Notes: generated by a model not told the origin, from the letters alone. A stretch of DNA of 64,000 nt from an uncultured Bdellovibrionales bacterium (GCA_964609855.1 CAZSTB010000001.1:119170-183169); one strand, 5' to 3'; shown: positions 4,052 through 50,905, counted from the stretch's first letter. Numbers and translations are program-made.

Positions 4052-4734
4052 AAAAGAAATATTTATTTTTTCTTTTTGGTATTTTGTTTTTGAGCTTTTT
4101 CATTATTTTTTACAGGAATTATTCTCCAGTAGCGCAGCAAATTCAAGAAAGCAAGCAAAGTCCAGCCGCGAAAAAAATAGAAAGTCAAGTGAATGAGAAT
4201 AATCTAGCGGTGCCTGGTCAGAATAAATCAGATGAATTTAAAATGCCTCTTGAAAAGACTTCGGAAAGAGTCACAAAGAAAGAATTCGGAAAATATGTAA
4301 CGCCCGAAAATTCTCCAGTCAGTCCGGAAAGATTCTCCGGATACCACACTGGTGTGGATTTCGAAATATTTCCCGGGGAAGAAAACGTTGAAATAAAAGT
4401 CTCTGCCATGTGCTCGGGAAAGTTGTTGGAGAAAAGATATGCTAGCGGATATGGCGGCGCGCTAGTTCAGTCTTGCCGGCTTAATAATGAGGACGTGACT
4501 GTAATTTATGGACATCTGGAGCTTGCCAGCATAGATAAAAAAATTGGTGACGATTTAAATGCTGGAGATCTTTTAGGAATTCTGGGCGATGGAAATAGCC
4601 AAGAAACAGATGGCGAACGTAAGCATTTACATCTTGGTATTCACAAAGGAAAAGATATAAATCTTTTGGGTTATGCAAAAAATCAAACTCAACTTTCGCA
4701 GTGGCACGATCCTTGTAAATGGGTTTGTGATTGA
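4048..4734 (+). CDS. M23 family metallopeptidase (LytM domain), membrane-anchored
   Basis: N-terminal TM segment. HTGVDF and GHLE...HLHLGIH zinc-binding motifs of peptidase M23. Confidence 0.75.
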   Translation: MKKKYLFFLFGILFLSFFIIFYRNYSPVAQQIQESKQSPAAKKIESQVNENNLAVPGQNKSDEFKMPLEKTSERVTKKEFGKYVTPENSPVSPERFSGYHTGVDFEIFPGEENVEIKVSAMCSGKLLEKRYASGYGGALVQSCRLNNEDVTVIYGHLELASIDKKIGDDLNAGDLLGILGDGNSQETDGERKHLHLGIHKGKDINLLGYAKNQTQLSQWHDPCKWVCD

Positions 4735-4805
4735 GTTTAAAGATAAAATTTCATAAACATTACTGCAAAATTATTAATCCATACTCATTAACATACGATA
4801 AAACC

Positions 4806-4834
4806 TTGACTTTTTCATTTTTATCCTGTATACT
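4806..4834 (+). promoter_or_regulatory. Strong sigma70-like promoter (TTGACT-17-TATACT) with no downstream ORF
   Basis: ttgactttttcatttttatcctgtatact. The next ~500 bp are palindrome-rich and have no convincing ORF. Confidence 0.45.
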
Positions 4835-4933
4835 ACTATGGTGCTAAAAAATAAAATAGTGATATTTTGCTGGGCCCGCAACAAATTTGAGTGGGCAAAT
4901 AAATATTTTATCTAATCAATAAGATATTTTTTT

Positions 4934-4996
4934 ATTGTCGAACGAAGTCGAGCGAAACGAAAATAAACTTTTCGTTTCCGAGCGAGTGATGACATC
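4934..4996. repeat. MITE-like inverted-repeat element, copy 1 (short form)
   Basis: attgtcgaacgaagtcgagcg...cgagcgagtgatgacatc. The termini match, in inverted orientation, the termini of the elements at 39627-39749 and 50724-50903. Confidence 0.5.
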
Positions 4997-5518
4997 AAAT
5001 AGGTTTAACCTGCCTGCCGGCAGGCAGGTACCTCGATGCTTGCGAGGGTTCGGGGCTTGCCCCAGGGTTAATACCTTTTATTTTCAAGCGACGCAAGTTG
5101 AAGTGATGAAATATTTCATCACTACTGATCAGTGCGGGGACGCATGAGCTTGAACAGCCTACTTTCCAGGGTGAGGAGAGTGAAAAATATTCTACTGTTA
5201 TTTTTAGGCCGAAACAAAACACCAATCGTTTACAAATAGCATTTATAAGTAAGCGAGCCATCATTAATATAGGACTTACGCGTTTATCATCAAATCTTTC
5301 GTTTTTTACGTCGGGTGGGATGGATTAGGATAATGAATGCGTGCGCCTTGAAAAAAATATGTCAAAATTTGAATTGCTTAAAAAGCTGGAATATTTAATC
5401 GCGTTTCAATCTAATTGTTTGCAGAGTGGGAACTGGGATGAATTCGACAAGATTGAAGATAGTATTAAGAAATTAGAAGTAAATATCCTTAAATCTATCG
5501 AATAAGAAATTTTGCTTT

Positions 5519-5935
5519 TCACTTGCGCCCTTTTCTTGAAGTGCAATATGCACATTTGCAGCCCATAGGTTTTATATAGGTATAAAAATACTCTTTGCCG
5601 TAATCATAACCAAGTTGTTCTCCAACCTCGATATTTCTCAGTGCAAAAATCAGTATCTGCTTTCTGCGAATTTGAACTTCACAGTTGGGCTGACATGAGT
5701 GATTGATGTAACGGCTCAAATTTTCGCGACCCTTGCCGTCAATGGCCCATTTGGAATCTATTTGGAATAAGTATTTTCCGCCTCTTAGCTCAGCTTCCTC
5801 GGTTGAAATCAGGTCGCCGGTATATTCAGAAACAAGTTTTCCTTGAGTGATTTTTTCTTTAGCAAAAAGTCCTAAACCGCTTGCAGAACGGCTTACTTGC
5901 ATTAAATTCGAATTTGTTAGTATGTATTTTGCCAT
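5519..5935 (-). CDS. SET-domain protein (putative lysine methyltransferase) with post-SET Cys cluster
   Basis: RYINHSCQPNC (NHSC SET signature), ELGEQLGYDY, and a C-terminal CKCAYC cysteine cluster. Confidence 0.8.
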   Translation of the reverse strand: MAKYILTNSNLMQVSRSASGLGLFAKEKITQGKLVSEYTGDLISTEEAELRGGKYLFQIDSKWAIDGKGRENLSRYINHSCQPNCEVQIRRKQILIFALRNIEVGEQLGYDYGKEYFYTYIKPMGCKCAYCTSRKGRK

Positions 5936-20140: not shown

Positions 20141-20261
20141 TGCTTCAATGCGATGCGCCAAACACACTATTGAGTGCAGGCTCGAATCGTTATGCATATT
20201 TGAGTGATTGTTAGATTGTTAACGTCTACATAGTTTATCAATAAACCATCTTTTGTCAAGG

Positions 20262-20423
20262 CACTAATCATTTAAACAGCTAATCATTCAAGCATTTAAA
20301 CAAATAAACATGTAAACATGTAAACACTTAATCATTTAAACATGTAAACATTCAAACATTCAAACATTCAAACATTCAAACAATATGAATCGCTGTTTAA
20401 ATGTTTACATGTTTAAATGATCA
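20262..20423. repeat. Iteron-like repeat block in the marR divergent promoter region
   Basis: taatcatttaaaca occurs twice, aacatgtaaaca three times, ttcaaaca four times in tandem. A 22-24 bp inverted repeat: taatcatttaaacatgtaaacatt (20329-20352) against aatgtttacatgtttaaatgatca (20399-20422). Confidence 0.6.
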
Positions 20424-20433
20424 TATGAAATGG

Positions 20434-20596: not shown

Positions 20597-21343
20597 ATGC
20601 GTAAAAAAGTAACAGCAAAAAAATCAAAAGCTTCAGTTAAGCCTAAAAAGGCTAAGACTATGCAAATGGTGAAAACTCAAAAAATCGCCAAGAAAGTTAA
20701 ACCTGCCAAGAAAGCTGTAGCAATAAGGAAAATTCGTAAGACTACGAAAGCGCTTTTCGCTTTAGGTAATTTAAATTCCTCGCATGCTAGAATTTTAATT
20801 TTATTGATCCTGATTATTTTTACTTTAACTTTCATGGTTGCATGGAGAATGCAAACTGATGATAATGATAATCTAAAAAATGCACAGATAAAGGTTGCCC
20901 AGGTTAAGCAGCAAACTCCCCTTGAAAAAGAAATTGCTGATATGGTGCAAGGTTATCCGATTGAAAAAATGATGCCATATATTTTGAAACAGGAGCCGAA
21001 GACCGCGATGTTTCTGGTGGCTATCGCTAAGAAAGAAAGTGCATGGGGAAAAAGGAAGCCGGTTTTAAATGGCGAAGATTGTTTCAATTATTGGGGCTTT
21101 CGTCTGAAAGCTGAACGAATGGGCTCAGGAGGTCATACTTGTTTTGACTCTCCAAAGCAAGCTGTTGAGAAAGTAGCTGAACGTATTGATCAGTTAGTCA
21201 AAGAAGAGGAAATCGATACGCCGTCTGACATGATCGTTTGGAAATGCGGTTATGGTTGTCAGGATAAACCCAAGACTATCAGTGAAAAAAAATGGATTAA
21301 TGATGTGGATTTCTATTACAGTGCGATGAATGAATATCTGTAA
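20597..21343 (+). CDS. Membrane-anchored GH73-like (ESxWG) putative peptidoglycan hydrolase with Lys-rich N-terminal tail (paralog family B)
   Basis: KAKK-rich N-terminus, one TM, then AIAKKESAWGKR...NYWGF...GSGGHTCF...WKCG. Paralogs at 48634 and 49871. Confidence 0.5.
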   Translation: MRKKVTAKKSKASVKPKKAKTMQMVKTQKIAKKVKPAKKAVAIRKIRKTTKALFALGNLNSSHARILILLILIIFTLTFMVAWRMQTDDNDNLKNAQIKVAQVKQQTPLEKEIADMVQGYPIEKMMPYILKQEPKTAMFLVAIAKKESAWGKRKPVLNGEDCFNYWGFRLKAERMGSGGHTCFDSPKQAVEKVAERIDQLVKEEEIDTPSDMIVWKCGYGCQDKPKTISEKKWINDVDFYYSAMNEYL

Positions 21344-36338: not shown

Positions 36339-36536
36339 ATGATGTTAATGATTTATTTTTGCTGGTTTATGTCTGAGAATGAAACAACTGAAAAATATAA
36401 AAAAGCCTGGGAAAAATTTCAGGAAAAGATGGCCTCATTGAAAAAGAGACGCCATGAAATTTTGGCGCGCATTTCTGAGAAGTTGGATAGGCAACATATC
36501 GAAAAACTAAGAAAAAAATTAGAAGATCATGTATAA
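36339..36536 (+). CDS. Small hypothetical protein, overlaps downstream gene by 8 bp (ATGTATAA)
   Basis: 65 aa charged helical ORF, translationally coupled with 36529. Confidence 0.3.
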   Translation: MMLMIYFCWFMSENETTEKYKKAWEKFQEKMASLKKRRHEILARISEKLDRQHIEKLRKKLEDHV

Positions 36537-38451
36537 AGAACCATCATCAATTGAAACTACAGAAAGACAAGAGGCTCATGAAAAGCATGAAGCTCCGCGA
36601 AGCGTTGAAAAATCTGCTGCGGAAATTGGTGAGCAAATGATAGAGCAAGCAGGAAAAGAAGTTGCTGATTTTCAACAAGAAGGAATTGCTGAACTTGCTC
36701 TAGTCGAGGCACGGGCTGAGAAAGAGGGGCTTTCTATTGATGGCGCAGACAAAGAAGAATTGCAAGGACTAGGCAAAGAAGTAATTATTGCAAAAGAAGA
36801 ATTGGTTGCTGAAATTATGCCTCCATTAATTCCTAATATACCGCCTCCATTACCACAAGAATATCTGCAGAGGTTTTTAGTAACTCCACCTCCATTACCT
36901 AATACGCCCCCGCCACTTCCAGCGGAATATTTAAGCACTATACTGCCGTATTTACCAAGTACGCCTCCGCCTTTGCCTGAGGAGTATTTGCGTAGCACCC
37001 CACCTCCATTGCCAAATATGCCACCACCCTTGCCAGAAATGTCAACAAAAATTCAACAAGAAGAAGAAAAAAGCTCCACCATGAAAGAACGAGTCATTGA
37101 AAATCCTGAATTGTTGAGCGAAAAAGAAGCTTCAAAAAAATTACTTTCAGAAGAACGTATAAAACTTGCACAAGAAATTCGCGAACAAAGAAACGCTCAA
37201 GGCAGCAGGCTTTCTAGAATGAAAAATGTTCTTGAAACTGGACAAGAAAAATTAGAAGGAGAACAAGGCGACAAACAATTTGGAAGACTTTCGCAGTTGC
37301 AAAGCGCTGAAGCTAATTTGATGGCGGAAAGAATTTCTTCTGAAGAATTGAGCGAGCAAGATGCTGGTACAGAGAAAGAAAACATGAATCAGCTTATTGA
37401 AAATAGTGAAAAATTAAAATCAGTAAAGGAAAAAATAAAAGAGCATTACGAAAAGGCTGGTGAGATTTCAAGAGAAAGATTTGAAACCATTCAAAAAAGT
37501 GTAGAACAAACGGCTTTGAGAAATGGAGTATTTTTTGTGCATACAATACAGGAAAGTTCTCTTAAAAGACATAATGAACTCTCGAATGTTGCAAGTGAGG
37601 CAACATATGAAGATGATACCGACATTCTTCTTTCGCTGGAGCCAACGATATCTGCATCATCAATTTTTTCAGGAAAGTCAGAAGAAGGAAAAGTAAGTGG
37701 ATTATGGAGTGATACAGGCGGATTTATATTGGGTGGCGGCGATATTCAATATGCGGACAGAAATGATGCTGATTCTGTAAGTGAAGGAATAAAAAAACGA
37801 ACGATAGTTGGTGGTCCCAATAAGCAATCGATTGAAGATATTGATAAAGTAGTTTCAAAACGTGGAGAAATGGAATCCATGATTAAGGAGCGTGATGGTG
37901 TGAAAATGCAAGAGCAGGGTTCTGTTTATAATGAATTTATAATAAATAATCCTAAGGTTTTTGGATATTATCAGCCAGTTGGAATTGAGGAAGACGAGCT
38001 TTTTGCAGACGGTAAGTATTATGCTGGGGATATAAGTACCAAAACTGACTACGAAGAATTGACTTATATAAAAAGCAGACTTGAAAAATTTAAAACAAGA
38101 CCCGATCTTGTTTCTTCATTCACCATGGAAACTCCAGAACTGTATCAAGAAAAATTATCAGCGTTTCAAGCAAAGATAGCTCGTTTTAAAGAAAGATTTG
38201 AAAAAATGGCTGCGCGAGGTAATTCTCTGTATATAATGACACCAGACAAGAGCATGCATGAATATAATGGAGTAAATGAGGATGGTTCTGTAAACATGGG
38301 AAAACAATTGACACCAGAGGAAGTTGCTACTGGGCGCGCAGGTTTGTCAACTGAAAAGCGTAAAGAGCTTGGCGAAAAAGTTCTTGAGAAAAAAGTGTTT
38401 AAGAAGCAAGAAACCGCTGAAGAAGCAAGACAAATTATAAATAATTTATAA
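36529..38451 (+). CDS. Large acidic hypothetical protein with five tandem PPPLPxEYL proline-rich repeats
   Basis: IPNIPPPLPQEYL / TPPPLPNTPPPLPAEYL / STPPPLPEEYL / TPPPLPNMPPPLPEM. The rest is coiled-coil and charged. Confidence 0.6.
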   Translation: MYKEPSSIETTERQEAHEKHEAPRSVEKSAAEIGEQMIEQAGKEVADFQQEGIAELALVEARAEKEGLSIDGADKEELQGLGKEVIIAKEELVAEIMPPLIPNIPPPLPQEYLQRFLVTPPPLPNTPPPLPAEYLSTILPYLPSTPPPLPEEYLRSTPPPLPNMPPPLPEMSTKIQQEEEKSSTMKERVIENPELLSEKEASKKLLSEERIKLAQEIREQRNAQGSRLSRMKNVLETGQEKLEGEQGDKQFGRLSQLQSAEANLMAERISSEELSEQDAGTEKENMNQLIENSEKLKSVKEKIKEHYEKAGEISRERFETIQKSVEQTALRNGVFFVHTIQESSLKRHNELSNVASEATYEDDTDILLSLEPTISASSIFSGKSEEGKVSGLWSDTGGFILGGGDIQYADRNDADSVSEGIKKRTIVGGPNKQSIEDIDKVVSKRGEMESMIKERDGVKMQEQGSVYNEFIINNPKVFGYYQPVGIEEDELFADGKYYAGDISTKTDYEELTYIKSRLEKFKTRPDLVSSFTMETPELYQEKLSAFQAKIARFKERFEKMAARGNSLYIMTPDKSMHEYNGVNEDGSVNMGKQLTPEEVATGRAGLSTEKRKELGEKVLEKKVFKKQETAEEARQIINNL

Positions 38452-39044: not shown

Positions 39045-39602
39045 ATGGAAGAAATCTATAAAACTAAAAAAATATTAAGTGCGGTTGCCAAAAACACCAG
39101 TCTGGGGCGCTTTTTAGGCACTGAAAAAAGCAAGAATGCAGTTTTAGGGGTAATGAATAAGCAGCATATAACAGTGGACCCTGGCAAACTTTCAGGTAGC
39201 AAGAAAGCTGCTTTTTTGAGAGCGGTATCGGATACGCACGTGTTTGGCGCTACCGCTAAGAAAGCTTTCGGCAGCGTTTACGGAAAAAATAAGGAGCAGG
39301 CTGAAAAGCAGCCTGCGGCAGCGGGAAATTCCAGGCAGGAAATTTATGATAAAATTATGAGTAAGAAAAATGGCTTTATGGAAAGAAAAGCTCTTGCTGA
39401 AAATAAAACTTCCAGTGGACCGGCTCGCGAAAAATCAAAAGTTTTGGATTTCCGAGTTAGTGGAATGAATATCAGAGAAGCTGACGGATTACTTGCGAAA
39501 GCGCAGGATAATCGGCATCCAATATATGACACCGGACATGGCATGGGAGCAGGAAATGAAAAAGAGGATAGGATTGCTCGTCTGAAAAATATTCAGTCCT
39601 GA
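39045..39602 (+). CDS. Hypothetical Lys/Ala-rich protein
   Basis: 185 aa, low complexity; no motif recognised. Confidence 0.35.
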   Translation: MEEIYKTKKILSAVAKNTSLGRFLGTEKSKNAVLGVMNKQHITVDPGKLSGSKKAAFLRAVSDTHVFGATAKKAFGSVYGKNKEQAEKQPAAAGNSRQEIYDKIMSKKNGFMERKALAENKTSSGPAREKSKVLDFRVSGMNIREADGLLAKAQDNRHPIYDTGHGMGAGNEKEDRIARLKNIQS

Positions 39603-39626
39603 GAATAAAAGGGGCCATACCTTTTT

Positions 39627-39749
39627 GATGTCATTACTCGCTCGGAAATGGAAACATGCCTTACATATTTCTGCGTTCACTCGGAAAAGAAAAAAAGTAT
39701 AGTTTCTGTTTGAAAATTAATTTCCATTTCGCTCACTTCGCTCGACAAT
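39627..39749. repeat. MITE-like inverted-repeat element, copy 2
   Basis: gatgtcattactcgctcggaaatggaaa...tttccatttcgctcacttcgctcgacaat. Termini are reverse complements of the copy-1 termini. Contains an internal long palindrome. Confidence 0.5.
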
Positions 39750-39781
39750 AAAAATAGGAACCCGCGCTTTGCATCGGATTC

Positions 39782-40108
39782 CTAAAATTCAATTGTGATT
39801 CCCATTTTTTCCAGTACCTTTTTTGTTTGGGGGTCGGAAGCTATCTTCCAACTCGCCGTCGTGACAAGTTTTTCCAGAGAAGGAAATTTTTTTCGTAAGC
39901 TGGGGTTGTCGTATACCAGATTACTAAGGTCGGTTACGAAAGCGTTTAAACTTTCAATTATGCCGTTTCTTTGACTTTCACTGGATTGGTCAAAAATTTT
40001 GCATAGCCTGAAAATTTCGGCTGCTAGGTGAAAGGCGTTCTCTTTGAAACCTTGAAGTTTCTTTGGCGAAATTCTTTGACTGGTGGGATATCTGTATTTG
40101 ATTGTCAA
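39782..40108 (-). CDS. Hypothetical protein
   Basis: 108 aa; no motif recognised. Confidence 0.4.
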   Translation of the reverse strand: MTIKYRYPTSQRISPKKLQGFKENAFHLAAEIFRLCKIFDQSSESQRNGIIESLNAFVTDLSNLVYDNPSLRKKFPSLEKLVTTASWKIASDPQTKKVLEKMGITIEF

Positions 40109-50699: not shown

Positions 50700-50905
50700 C
50701 TGTCATTTTGTGTGCAATTCCTGTGTCATTCCGAGCGAAGTGAGTCGACCAAGGGGAGATGAGCGCAGTTGAGGAATCTGAGTTAAATAATTTTTAAAAT
50801 CTGGCATTGAATGCGGATCCCTGCGCCATCGCTAAAGCTAAAGGCGGCACGCGGTCGGCTACATTTCTCCGCTATCGCGTCGTCATTTTGCTCGGGATGA
50901 CAAAT
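50700..50905. repeat. MITE-like element, copy 3 (~180 bp, terminal inverted repeats tgtcattccgagcg / gctcgggatgaca)
   Basis: TIRs at 50724-50737 and 50891-50903. Left end is shared with copy 2 (gtcattactcgctcgg) and, inverted, with the copy-1 end. Confidence 0.5.

Follow-up and report, generated by a model that had tools for sequence, protein, structure and literature searches.

The closest described counterparts of the elements considered here are the repetitive extragenic palindromic (REP) sequences tagged with CGTC, or with the tag variants TGTC and CCTC, a superfamily that includes the dRS3 repeats of Neisseria and RPE-4 and RPE-6 of Rickettsia (Di Nocera, De Gregorio, Rocco 2013; PMC3733652). 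In that account, a unit has a stem of 8-9 bp, whose first two pairs are A-T, a loop of 4-5 nt, and a short unpaired tail that is mostly CCA; the units mostly occur as head-to-head dimers, with their tags facing outward and a spacer of 20-100 bp that can fold between them. They lie mostly downstream of open reading frames (ORFs), between unidirectional or convergent genes, and have no associated transposase; how such transposase-less CGTC/TGTC REPs spread is posed as an open question (PMC3733652). Here, three intergenic sequences are compared with these and other repeats. They lie in a 64,000-nt stretch of DNA from an uncultured Bdellovibrionales bacterium (GCA_964609855.1 CAZSTB010000001.1:119170-183169), called the window below. 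It is proposed that all three are probably small, non-autonomous hairpin repeats of the REP type, and that they belong to two related families. An earlier note on this DNA, which located and quoted the three copies correctly, had placed them in a single family of elements resembling MITEs (miniature transposable elements with inverted repeats). Copies 1 and 2 do belong together, whereas copy 3 is a member of a different family.

The window, a segment of a bacterial chromosome, has a guanine-plus-cytosine (GC) content of ~39% and a GC skew that is positive throughout. Its proteins have their best named relatives in Candidatus Moranbacteria and in 'ACD' groundwater bins, and they are also found on Logan contigs of the runs SRR446575, SRR446576, and SRR446577. 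When copies 1 and 2 are oriented as GATGTCAT..CGACAAT, copy 1 occupies the minus strand and copy 2 the plus strand. As the earlier note had observed, their ends match each other's reverse complements: positions 4969-5004 match 39619-39654 in inverted orientation over 36 nt at 89%, and the other ends agree at ~20/23 positions with one indel. The inner stems of the two copies show compensatory differences, CGAAAA/TTTTCG vs TGGAAA/TTTCCA. The repeat that they share, ~70 nt long, is called module B. In copy 2 the loop of the inner hairpin holds an insert of ~60 nt with a degenerate second left arm inside, and a hidden Markov model (HMM) built from 54 distinct copies matches copy 2 in two pieces (39670-39753, E=9.5e-10; 39624-39659, E=2.5e-6). 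Copies 1 and 2 are the only HMM matches in the window. A covariance model of module B, run with filters off, gave 83.5 bits for copy 1 and 35.3 bits for copy 2 and no other significant match in the window. The homology of copies 1 and 2 is far above chance.

Module B is not confined to this window. When one genome per species was scanned with its left arm, GATGTCATYACTCGCTCGG, 12 loci were obtained. True copies account for seven of these, with five in Candidatus Moranbacteria GW2011_GWC2_37_8 (the source of loci L013 and L169) and two in other metagenome-assembled genomes (MAGs) of Patescibacteria, three MAGs in total; the other loci are at chance expectation. A metagenome scan with the right arm alone as query, TTTCNCTCN{1,2}CTTCGYTYGACAAT, gave 85 loci, and ~80 of these also carry the left arm, which was absent from the query. 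Altogether, ~90 further distinct copies were found in MAGs of Moranbacteria-type Patescibacteria, or candidate phyla radiation (CPR), and in metagenome contigs. The density is ~2-3 per 100 kb: beyond the seeding match, loci hold ~2 further copies per 100 kb, with four copies in one 14.5-kb locus, and the window has two in 64 kb; it can be estimated from this that a genome of ~1 Mb would hold tens of copies. The copy density of E. coli REPs is far above this. On the CPR loci, the copies are in mixed orientation.

Module B is built from an outer stem, two near-invariant pyrimidine-rich boxes, and a covarying inner hairpin, often with a small hairpin (hp1) or a larger module (module A) on its 5' side. 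On the element strand, the consensus reads AATAAA-[hp1 or module A]-TTTG(A/T)TGTC(A)TC(A/G)CT(C/T)GCTCGG in its 5' part and AAAYG..(hairpin)..CRTTT-CNCTCG(A)CTTCG(T/C)T(C/T)GACAATAAAAA in its 3' part. The outer stem joins TTTG(A/T)TGTC with GACAATAAA around the core TTGTC/GACAA, and the ends of the module pair over 5-9 nt only. The boxes, ATCACTCGCTCGG and CTCGCTTCG(T/C)TC (the latter also given as CTCGCTTCGYTC), lie between the stems and do not pair with each other. The inner hairpin, GGAAAYG..CRTTTC, has changed in sequence by compensatory substitution. In an alignment of 51 sequences, 90% of cells pair in the proposed structure vs 38-50% when the partners are slid; one inner-stem pair is present as UA (39 sequences), CG (7), or AU (3), and the next as GC (38), UA (6), AU (2), or CG (1). 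There are double changes at all four innermost pairs, and the covariation score was reached in 0/500 shuffles. The inner hairpin is under structural selection. The outer stem is invariant and consequently gives neither support nor contradiction for pairing. It had been suggested that every copy folds into a long hairpin. This holds for copy 3, but copies 1 and 2 alone do not fold significantly as single sequences (z -0.3 to -1.5), and in them it is the inner hairpin that is supported, by covariation. As a separate observation, the inner part of the module B hairpin, ATGTTCGACTGCTGACGA, is present or precisely absent at the same locus in different samples (L061 vs L091 and L005, L024 vs L099), an indel polymorphism within the element.

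The 5' hairpin hp1 has the consensus GGTATTNACC, set between an A tract and a T tract; that of copy 2 begins 2 nt past the TGA stop of ORF 39045..39602. An equivalent arrangement of A tract, hairpin, and T tract precedes most members of module B. Because it recurs at unrelated loci with stems that differ and still pair, hp1 is regarded as part of the element. In many copies hp1 is expanded to module A, which consists of a closing stem, AGGTTTAACC/GGTTAATACCT, and three hairpins and is followed on the plus strand by TTTTATTTT. In GW2011_GWC2_37_8, as in many of the metagenome copies, module B has a homologous module A in front of it. Of 45 occurrences of the module A hallmark hairpins, 39 are no more than 160 nt away from a module B; the six that are far from it, in coding sequence, look like chance. 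Module A at 4998-5085 belongs to copy 1, which is therefore larger than the ~63 bp first assigned to it. One hairpin of module A is a GC palindrome of the form CCTGCCTGCCGG(C/T)AGGCAGG, whose position in or near the elements varies (left arm, hp1, or module A) and which occurs twice away from them. It is also present in L008, L045, L051, L055, L057, L060, L090, and L095, and in this AT-rich genome it behaves like an independently inserting mini-hairpin. Two ORFs, 4935-5147 (plus strand, 70 aa) and 4995-5264 (minus strand, 89 aa), span copy 1 and module A. In all likelihood the repeat creates them artificially, and neither is a gene.

Copy 3 matches neither the module B HMM (E<=10) nor the covariance model. 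It is a dimer of REP-like units that carry the TGTC tag, and its two units, one intact and one degenerate, flank a unique spacer of ~100 nt. The loop of the left unit holds a 29-nt insert, and similar loop inserts are seen in L112, L118, L159, and L160. The terminal inverted repeat, previously counted as 13/15, is real but longer, with ~20/24 matching positions over 26 nt and a 2-nt gap, and copy 3 is the only copy that folds clearly better than shuffled sequence. What links it to copies 1 and 2 is the 13-mer CGAGCGAAGTGAG and TGTC only; a 16-nt pattern with three mismatches allowed has 2 matches vs 0.34 expected. The unit type of copy 3, TGTC followed by ATTCCGAGCGAAG..GGAAT, is found well outside this lineage. 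Its terminus, TGTCATYCCGAGCRAAR, matches exactly in 60 IMG/VR loci, a total that is estimated to be roughly what chance would give. Many of these contigs have 2-3 copies, and the flanks show a common design, TGTCAT(T/C)CCGAGCGAAG(N)CGAGG(A/G)ATC .. GAT(T/C)CCTCGCTTCG(C/T)TCGG(A/G)ATGACA, into which the parts GAGGAATC and GCTCGGGATGACA of copy 3 fit. The arm of this family is a hairpin unit, TGTC then ATTCC-GA-GC-GAA-GC-GA-GGAAT then CTC, and the units are paired with their tags outside. There are 17 complete dimers, copy 3 included, with lengths of 75-203 nt, mostly 75-106 nt; on some IMG/VR contigs, units in the same orientation are spaced 1.4-2.3 kb apart. A blastn search of ~0.8 Mb of CPR loci gave no relative of copy 3 above chance, and the canonical dimer has no match in the plasmid collection.

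The copy-3-type unit and module B have in common the TGTC tag and the core GAGCGAAG/CTCGCTTCG only. However, the right arm of module B, CATTTC-G-CTCGCTTCGTTCG-ACAAT, equals that of the copy-3 family, GATTCC-TCGCTTCGTTCG-GAATGACA, minus GGAAT, and the left arm of module B resembles a copy-3-type unit with its loop flipped and shortened. Common descent of the two families, judged from a core of ~13 nt, is thus plausible. Module B would then have been derived from a copy-3-type dimer in which the CTCGCTTCGTTCG core was kept, the right arm lost one half-stem, and the loop of the left arm was flipped.

Both families share features with the CGTC REPs of PMC3733652. Copy 3 (TGTCAT..ATGACA) and module B (TTGTC..GACAA) both carry an unpaired TGTC tag at their outer ends. 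The elements are multi-copy and lie mostly downstream of ORFs, between unidirectional or convergent genes, and no linked transposase was found. In the copy-3 type, the stem begins with A-T and T-A (ATTCC/GGAAT), and the head-to-head dimers described above have their tags outside and a spacer that can fold. A CPR contig (L032) even carries a textbook unit, TGTC then ATTCCCGTG-TAAA-CGGGAAT then CTA. On the other hand, the copy-3-type unit, which starts with AT, has nine stem positions, two of which are G.A mismatches; its stem is thus one of 5+2 bp with tandem G.A mismatches, and the loop is either 3 nt or a large insert. Module B differs further in that it is without local hairpins: the boxes, derived from loops, have the same orientation and do not pair, and what connects the arms is an inner hairpin that is new. 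Finally, the host here belongs to the Patescibacteria, a phylum that is unnamed among the hosts in the passages of PMC3733652 considered. The copy-3 family has the tag, the AT start, the dimers, and the distribution, and module B keeps the tags and the core; for these reasons both are filed as REP-like and not as MITEs.

Other systems offer partial parallels. The REPs with a GTAG tag and their inverted doublets (REPINs), which are associated with the REP-associated tyrosine transposase (RAYT), are likewise short hairpins whose inverted doublets fold into a long hairpin, which reach tens to hundreds of copies, and which show no target duplication and presumably are recognized as single-strand hairpins. 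Here, however, the GTAG tag is absent, and no RAYT gene was seen that has the repeats on its flanks. The bacterial interspersed mosaic elements (BIMEs) of E. coli and BOX of Streptococcus pneumoniae also consist of interchangeable modules, as do hp1/module A, module B, and the GC mini-hairpins here, and they also lie between genes or within operons and are transcribed with their neighbours, but there is no sequence similarity.

That the copies entered their sites by insertion is shown by empty orthologous sites, for copy 1 to the nucleotide. Copy 1 sits at the end of a leader, ..TATTTTTTT, which is 80-84% identical across four genomes (the window, L169, L173, and L174) and ends ..GGTATTTTTTT. 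In L173 and L174 the site is empty: the leader, ..GGTATTTTTTT, runs directly into ATTGCC.. and continues with ATTGCCAAAAT. At the same junction L169 has a degenerate module B of 66 nt and the window has module B plus module A, and the stems of these two copies differ by compensatory changes. The site of copy 2 is empty in GW2011_GWC2_37_8 (L013), where nothing but 14 nt separates the stop codon from the counterpart of a terminator hairpin common to the convergent genes; in the window, copy 2 lies between stop codon and hairpin. The site of copy 3 is empty in L167 and L168, with the terminator alone in the spacer, and in L035 it holds a module B. When the ORFs that flank module B elsewhere were compared with those of the window, further pairs of filled and empty sites emerged. 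In L030, module B lies between an ABC ATPase and a permease whose genes are 11 nt apart in the window; in L033 and L063 it separates two genes that overlap in the window; and in L060 it separates genes that abut in the window, with another copy in a 48-nt divergent spacer. Two further M23-peptidase loci, L171 and L172, lacked synteny and were left aside. The reading of the elements as non-autonomous, multi-copy, intergenic, and REP-like is supported. Separately, the Logan contigs L003, L164, and L165 end at window positions ~4990 (copy 1) and ~50859 (copy 3), and L166 ends at ~50786; ends of contigs from independent same-strain short-read assemblies inside copies 1 and 3 would fit either assembly breaks at repeats or hairpins or population variation.

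The surroundings of the copies are those expected of REPs. Among 91 distinct copies of module B, the nearest upstream gene is co-oriented in 50 and opposed in 28. In 14/60 copies a long co-oriented ORF stops exactly at the 5' edge of the element, the stop being the TAA of AAATAAA before hp1 or a TAG directly before TGTTGTC, and a terminator-like hairpin lies <=70 nt downstream in 9/78 copies vs 2.6% of control positions. The insertion point abuts A/T runs and is typically after a stop codon, before a terminator, or between operon genes. The elements are thus found in 3' untranslated regions (UTRs) and in the spacers of operons, with 5' regions a less frequent location, which is a REP-like distribution.

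Table 1. Repeat elements, their parts, and adjoining context features in the window, with the evidence for each
Feature	Position	Strand	Evidence or sequence
Copy 1, complete module B	4930..4999	-	HMM E=2.5e-18; covariance model 83.5 bits, E=1.5e-19; aligns with MAG copies
Copy 1, minus-strand reading	4930..4999	-	TTTGATGTCATCACTCGCTCGG-AAACGAAAA(loop)TTTTCGTTT-CGCTCGACTTCGTTCGACAATAAAAA
Module A, accessory to copy 1 on its 5' side, GC-rich and branched	4998..5085	-	fold -37.4 kcal/mol, z=-2.6
20-nt GC palindrome CCTGCCTGCCGGCAGGCAGG, one module A hairpin	5009..5028		recurs at 9 places
hp1, small 5' hairpin of copy 2	39604..39626	+	read from sequence: AATAAAAGG-GGCCATA-CCTTTTT
Copy 2, module B	39624..39753	+	HMM, covariance model, fold
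Copy 2, parts	left arm ~39624-39654; right arm ~39718-39753	+	inner hairpin GGAAATGGAAA/TTTCCATTTC
Copy 3, head-to-head dimer of TGTC-tagged REP-like units	50724..50903		inverted repeat and fold, z=-3.25
Copy 3, left unit, intact	50724-50781		TGTC, then ATTCC-GAGCGAAG-[insert]-TGA-GGAAT, then CTG
Copy 3, right unit, degenerate	~50880-50903		GTCATTTTGCTCGGGATGACA
Promoter TTGACT-17-TATACT (4806-4834) and leader (context, not repeat)	4796..4933	+	promoter scan
Native bidirectional terminator hairpin AGGAACCCG..CGGATTCCT (context, not repeat)	39756..39783		read from sequence

The alternative raised first was that the sequences are classical MITEs, that is, deletion derivatives of a DDE-transposase insertion sequence that move by cut-and-paste, end in TG..CA, and have a short target duplication rich in A and T. 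The ends TGTC..GACA are indeed of the TG..CA type, copy 3 has a true inverted repeat of ~26 nt, the sizes and intergenic positions fit, and insertion polymorphism between related genomes is seen. Furthermore, on the element strand the target of copy 1 reads ..GGCAAT followed by AAAAAAA and an element normally ends ..GACAAT followed by AAAAA. Both end in AAT, as does the ..AAAAT at the end of copy 1 itself, and so a 3-bp duplication, or short homology, is possible. Nevertheless, AAT/AATAAA flanks the copies in near-constant form, unlike a site-specific duplication; the target-site duplications that were to be sought at each copy could not be demonstrated when left and right flanks were compared, none being site-specific, and copy 3 has none. 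The arms of module B are inverted repeats over their short outer stem only, both boxes being pyrimidine-rich and hence non-pairing, and the compensatory changes in the stems point to recognition of a hairpin, not of duplex ends. Correia elements of Neisseria, which are bacterial MITEs, have 26-bp inverted repeats and a TA duplication. They resemble the elements here in size (60-180 nt), intergenic position, hairpin formation, and insertion polymorphism, but module B has neither such repeats nor the TA duplication. Nor was a parent found. In ~0.8 Mb of related DNA, comprising loci of Patescibacteria/CPR, there is no insertion sequence with module B ends, nor a full-length element with a transposase of the kind the earlier note had proposed looking for, and copy 3 has no parent either. 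One candidate, the only insertion sequence found nearby, was considered and rejected. In GW2011_GWC2_37_8, the spacer orthologous to window 4735-5518 contains, between two copies of module B, a gene (L169 3466-4564) for a 355-aa, IS481-like transposase with helix-turn-helix and rve/rve_3 domains, but the 15-nt inverted repeats of that insertion sequence, ACATAGGTAACACTT, are unrelated to the ends of the elements. On balance, an origin as MITEs is unlikely for these sequences, and copies 1 and 2 do not bear out such a reading.

A second alternative is that the elements are host cis-acting RNA or terminator modules, such as a small RNA that ends in its own terminator, a 3'-UTR stabilizer, or a terminator that works in both directions, whose multiplicity reflects function. 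The substitutions preserve structure, even when the copies of the window and L169, which are positional orthologs, are compared; a stop codon is often where the element begins, and hp1 is placed between A and T tracts. In addition, plus-strand copy 1 lies between a strong, conserved promoter and module A with its U run, which would give a structured transcript of ~250 nt (z=-4.1). The boxes on the opposite strand are G/A-rich and could pair non-canonically. However, the promoter belongs to the leader of a small ORF and is also present where the element is absent, and the elements are present or absent at many unrelated orthologous sites, including operons and a divergent promoter region. They occur with both gene orientations, the main hairpin is without a U tract, and there is no Rfam family. 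With Rfam 15 in gathering mode, neither the window nor six loci with copy-3-type units gave a match, and the E-value mode gave only chance-level matches; no tRNA or tmRNA was found. An intrinsic terminator was tried as an explanation and rejected: there is no terminator-like site in 4600-5600, and on neither strand does a U tract follow the main hairpin; what comes next is AATAAAAA on one strand, and CAAA and then hp1 on the other. Only module A with TTTTATTTT, on the plus strand, resembles a terminator. A protein-coding reading was likewise rejected, since the only ORFs have 7 codons and the stems change by compensatory substitution. A host RNA module is rather improbable.

The dRS3 repeats of Neisseria act as integration targets for phages or IS110-type elements. 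That the elements here are recombination or attachment sites of this kind, or are attC-like, is very improbable, even though dRS3 belongs to the CGTC superfamily, an insertion sequence and small GC palindromes lie in or beside elements, and some copy-3-type units on IMG/VR contigs share one orientation, because the ends (module B, TTGTCGAAC.. and ..GATGACATC; copy 3, TGTCAT..ATGACA) have no attC R boxes, the CPR copies are in mixed orientation, and neither the window nor the CPR loci examined yielded an integrase or a cassette array. As to attC specifically, the ends have no RYYYAAC/GTTRRRY boxes and no GTT/AAC pair, and the window has no array.

Several observations also weigh against the assignment to REP-type repeats that is preferred here. 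The CGTC REP features of PMC3733652 are present only in part: where the described tail is CCA, that of the copy-3 family is CTC, CTG, or CTT, and module B has none. The bias in gene orientation given above, 50 vs 28, is mild, and in the inner stem the counts of A.C (19) and G.T (8) provide no strand signal. The AAT/AATAAA found on both flanks in nearly all copies fits a duplication or a target preference alike. Copies 1 and 2 are ~10-15% apart and have different stems, which gives no hint that the repeat moved recently in this genome; the filling of the copy 1 site in two species could reflect long vertical retention. No transposase is linked to the elements, either between or beside copies. 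Where inverted copies (L083, L095) or split arms (L030) enclose genes, these are ordinary ones, whose products are an efflux adaptor and ABC proteins, a glutamate racemase, and a membrane protein. Two RAYT-like Y1_Tnp genes were found on phage-like IMG/VR contigs, beside terminase and portal genes (L114 1167-1817, L116 1407-2060), and were rejected as mobilizers: copy-3-type dimers are present on these contigs, but they do not lie to either side of the genes as flanks.

How REP-type repeats of this kind might move can be proposed by analogy. In this model, a trans-acting factor would recognize the folded single strand through the unpaired, conserved boxes, and the factor may be an HUH tyrosine transposase acting on single-stranded DNA, as with REP/RAYT and IS200/IS605. 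The ends of IS200/IS605 elements and the ORF-less palindrome-associated transposable elements (PATEs) are also recognized as hairpins, leave no duplication, and insert 3' of a short conserved motif. TTGAT, which is the target of ISDra2, precedes GTCAT in ~60% of module B copies, and TTGTT in ~40%. However, the hairpin of module B is single and central where those elements have two that are subterminal, and a TnpA gene was not found with approximate Y1 queries. The earlier statement that the window has no transposase agrees with this as far as Y1 is concerned: tblastn with approximate consensus queries gave matches on the two phage-like contigs only, and neither the window nor the CPR loci yielded a Y1 (HUH tyrosine) transposase, Y1 being the only class searched in the window. 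An HUH enzyme is the best analogy, but an unproven one, and it runs against the lack of a transposase reported for CGTC REPs (PMC3733652); confidence in any specific mobilizing enzyme is low. Once inserted, the copies would be transcribed in 3' UTRs or operon spacers, and they may be kept because, as RNA hairpins, they shield transcripts or punctuate them, in the way of E. coli REPs. A bolder idea, speculative and on present grounds doubtful, goes beyond selfish DNA: the boxes of module B, held apart by the covarying hairpin, would be a putative binding site for a CPR-specific protein on the folded single strand. Such a protein might be the enzyme that moves CGTC/TGTC REPs, or an RNA-binding factor that uses the elements as punctuation in 3' UTRs and operons, in genomes with few known regulators. 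On the opposite strand, the G/A-rich boxes could form a non-canonical helix.

Other features of the window were noted in passing. The leader at 4796-4933 and the segment at ~5270-5358 (plus strand) lie upstream of a small ORF, 5359-5505. Promoter and leader are 80-84% identical in nucleotide sequence in the four Moranbacteria-like genomes, whereas the flanking proteins are only 55-70% identical. The ORF downstream of the leader is conserved (49-54 aa, MSKFE.LKKLEYL.AFQ.NCL..G.W..FD), and a cis-regulatory RNA is a possible identity for the conserved leader. Positions 20249-20430, within the spacer that lies upstream of the gene at 20597, hold an array with an 8-nt period, of at least 13 TAAACATN-like units, with an inverted partner at 20394-20421 (28 nt, 96%); the array resembles iterons or a protein-binding array. 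Within ORF 36529..38451 (640 aa), at 36817-37036, there are four diverged copies of a repeat of 57-66 nt.

Genomes of CPR/Patescibacteria are ~1 Mb in size and are regarded as streamlined. In the full-text literature, no description of REP-type repeats in this group was found, either by sequence or by topic, and as far as these searches show, the repeat system is previously undescribed in Patescibacteria. These elements have practical consequences for the annotation of CPR MAGs, in which they seed spurious ORFs, such as 4935..5147 and 4995..5264, and can supply the stop codons at the ends of genes; they may also break short-read assemblies. Taken together, the findings indicate that even tiny CPR genomes carry REP-type elements. 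With its ~90 copies, its covariation, and empty sites resolved to the nucleotide, module B could serve as a model for the spread of transposase-less CGTC/TGTC REPs.

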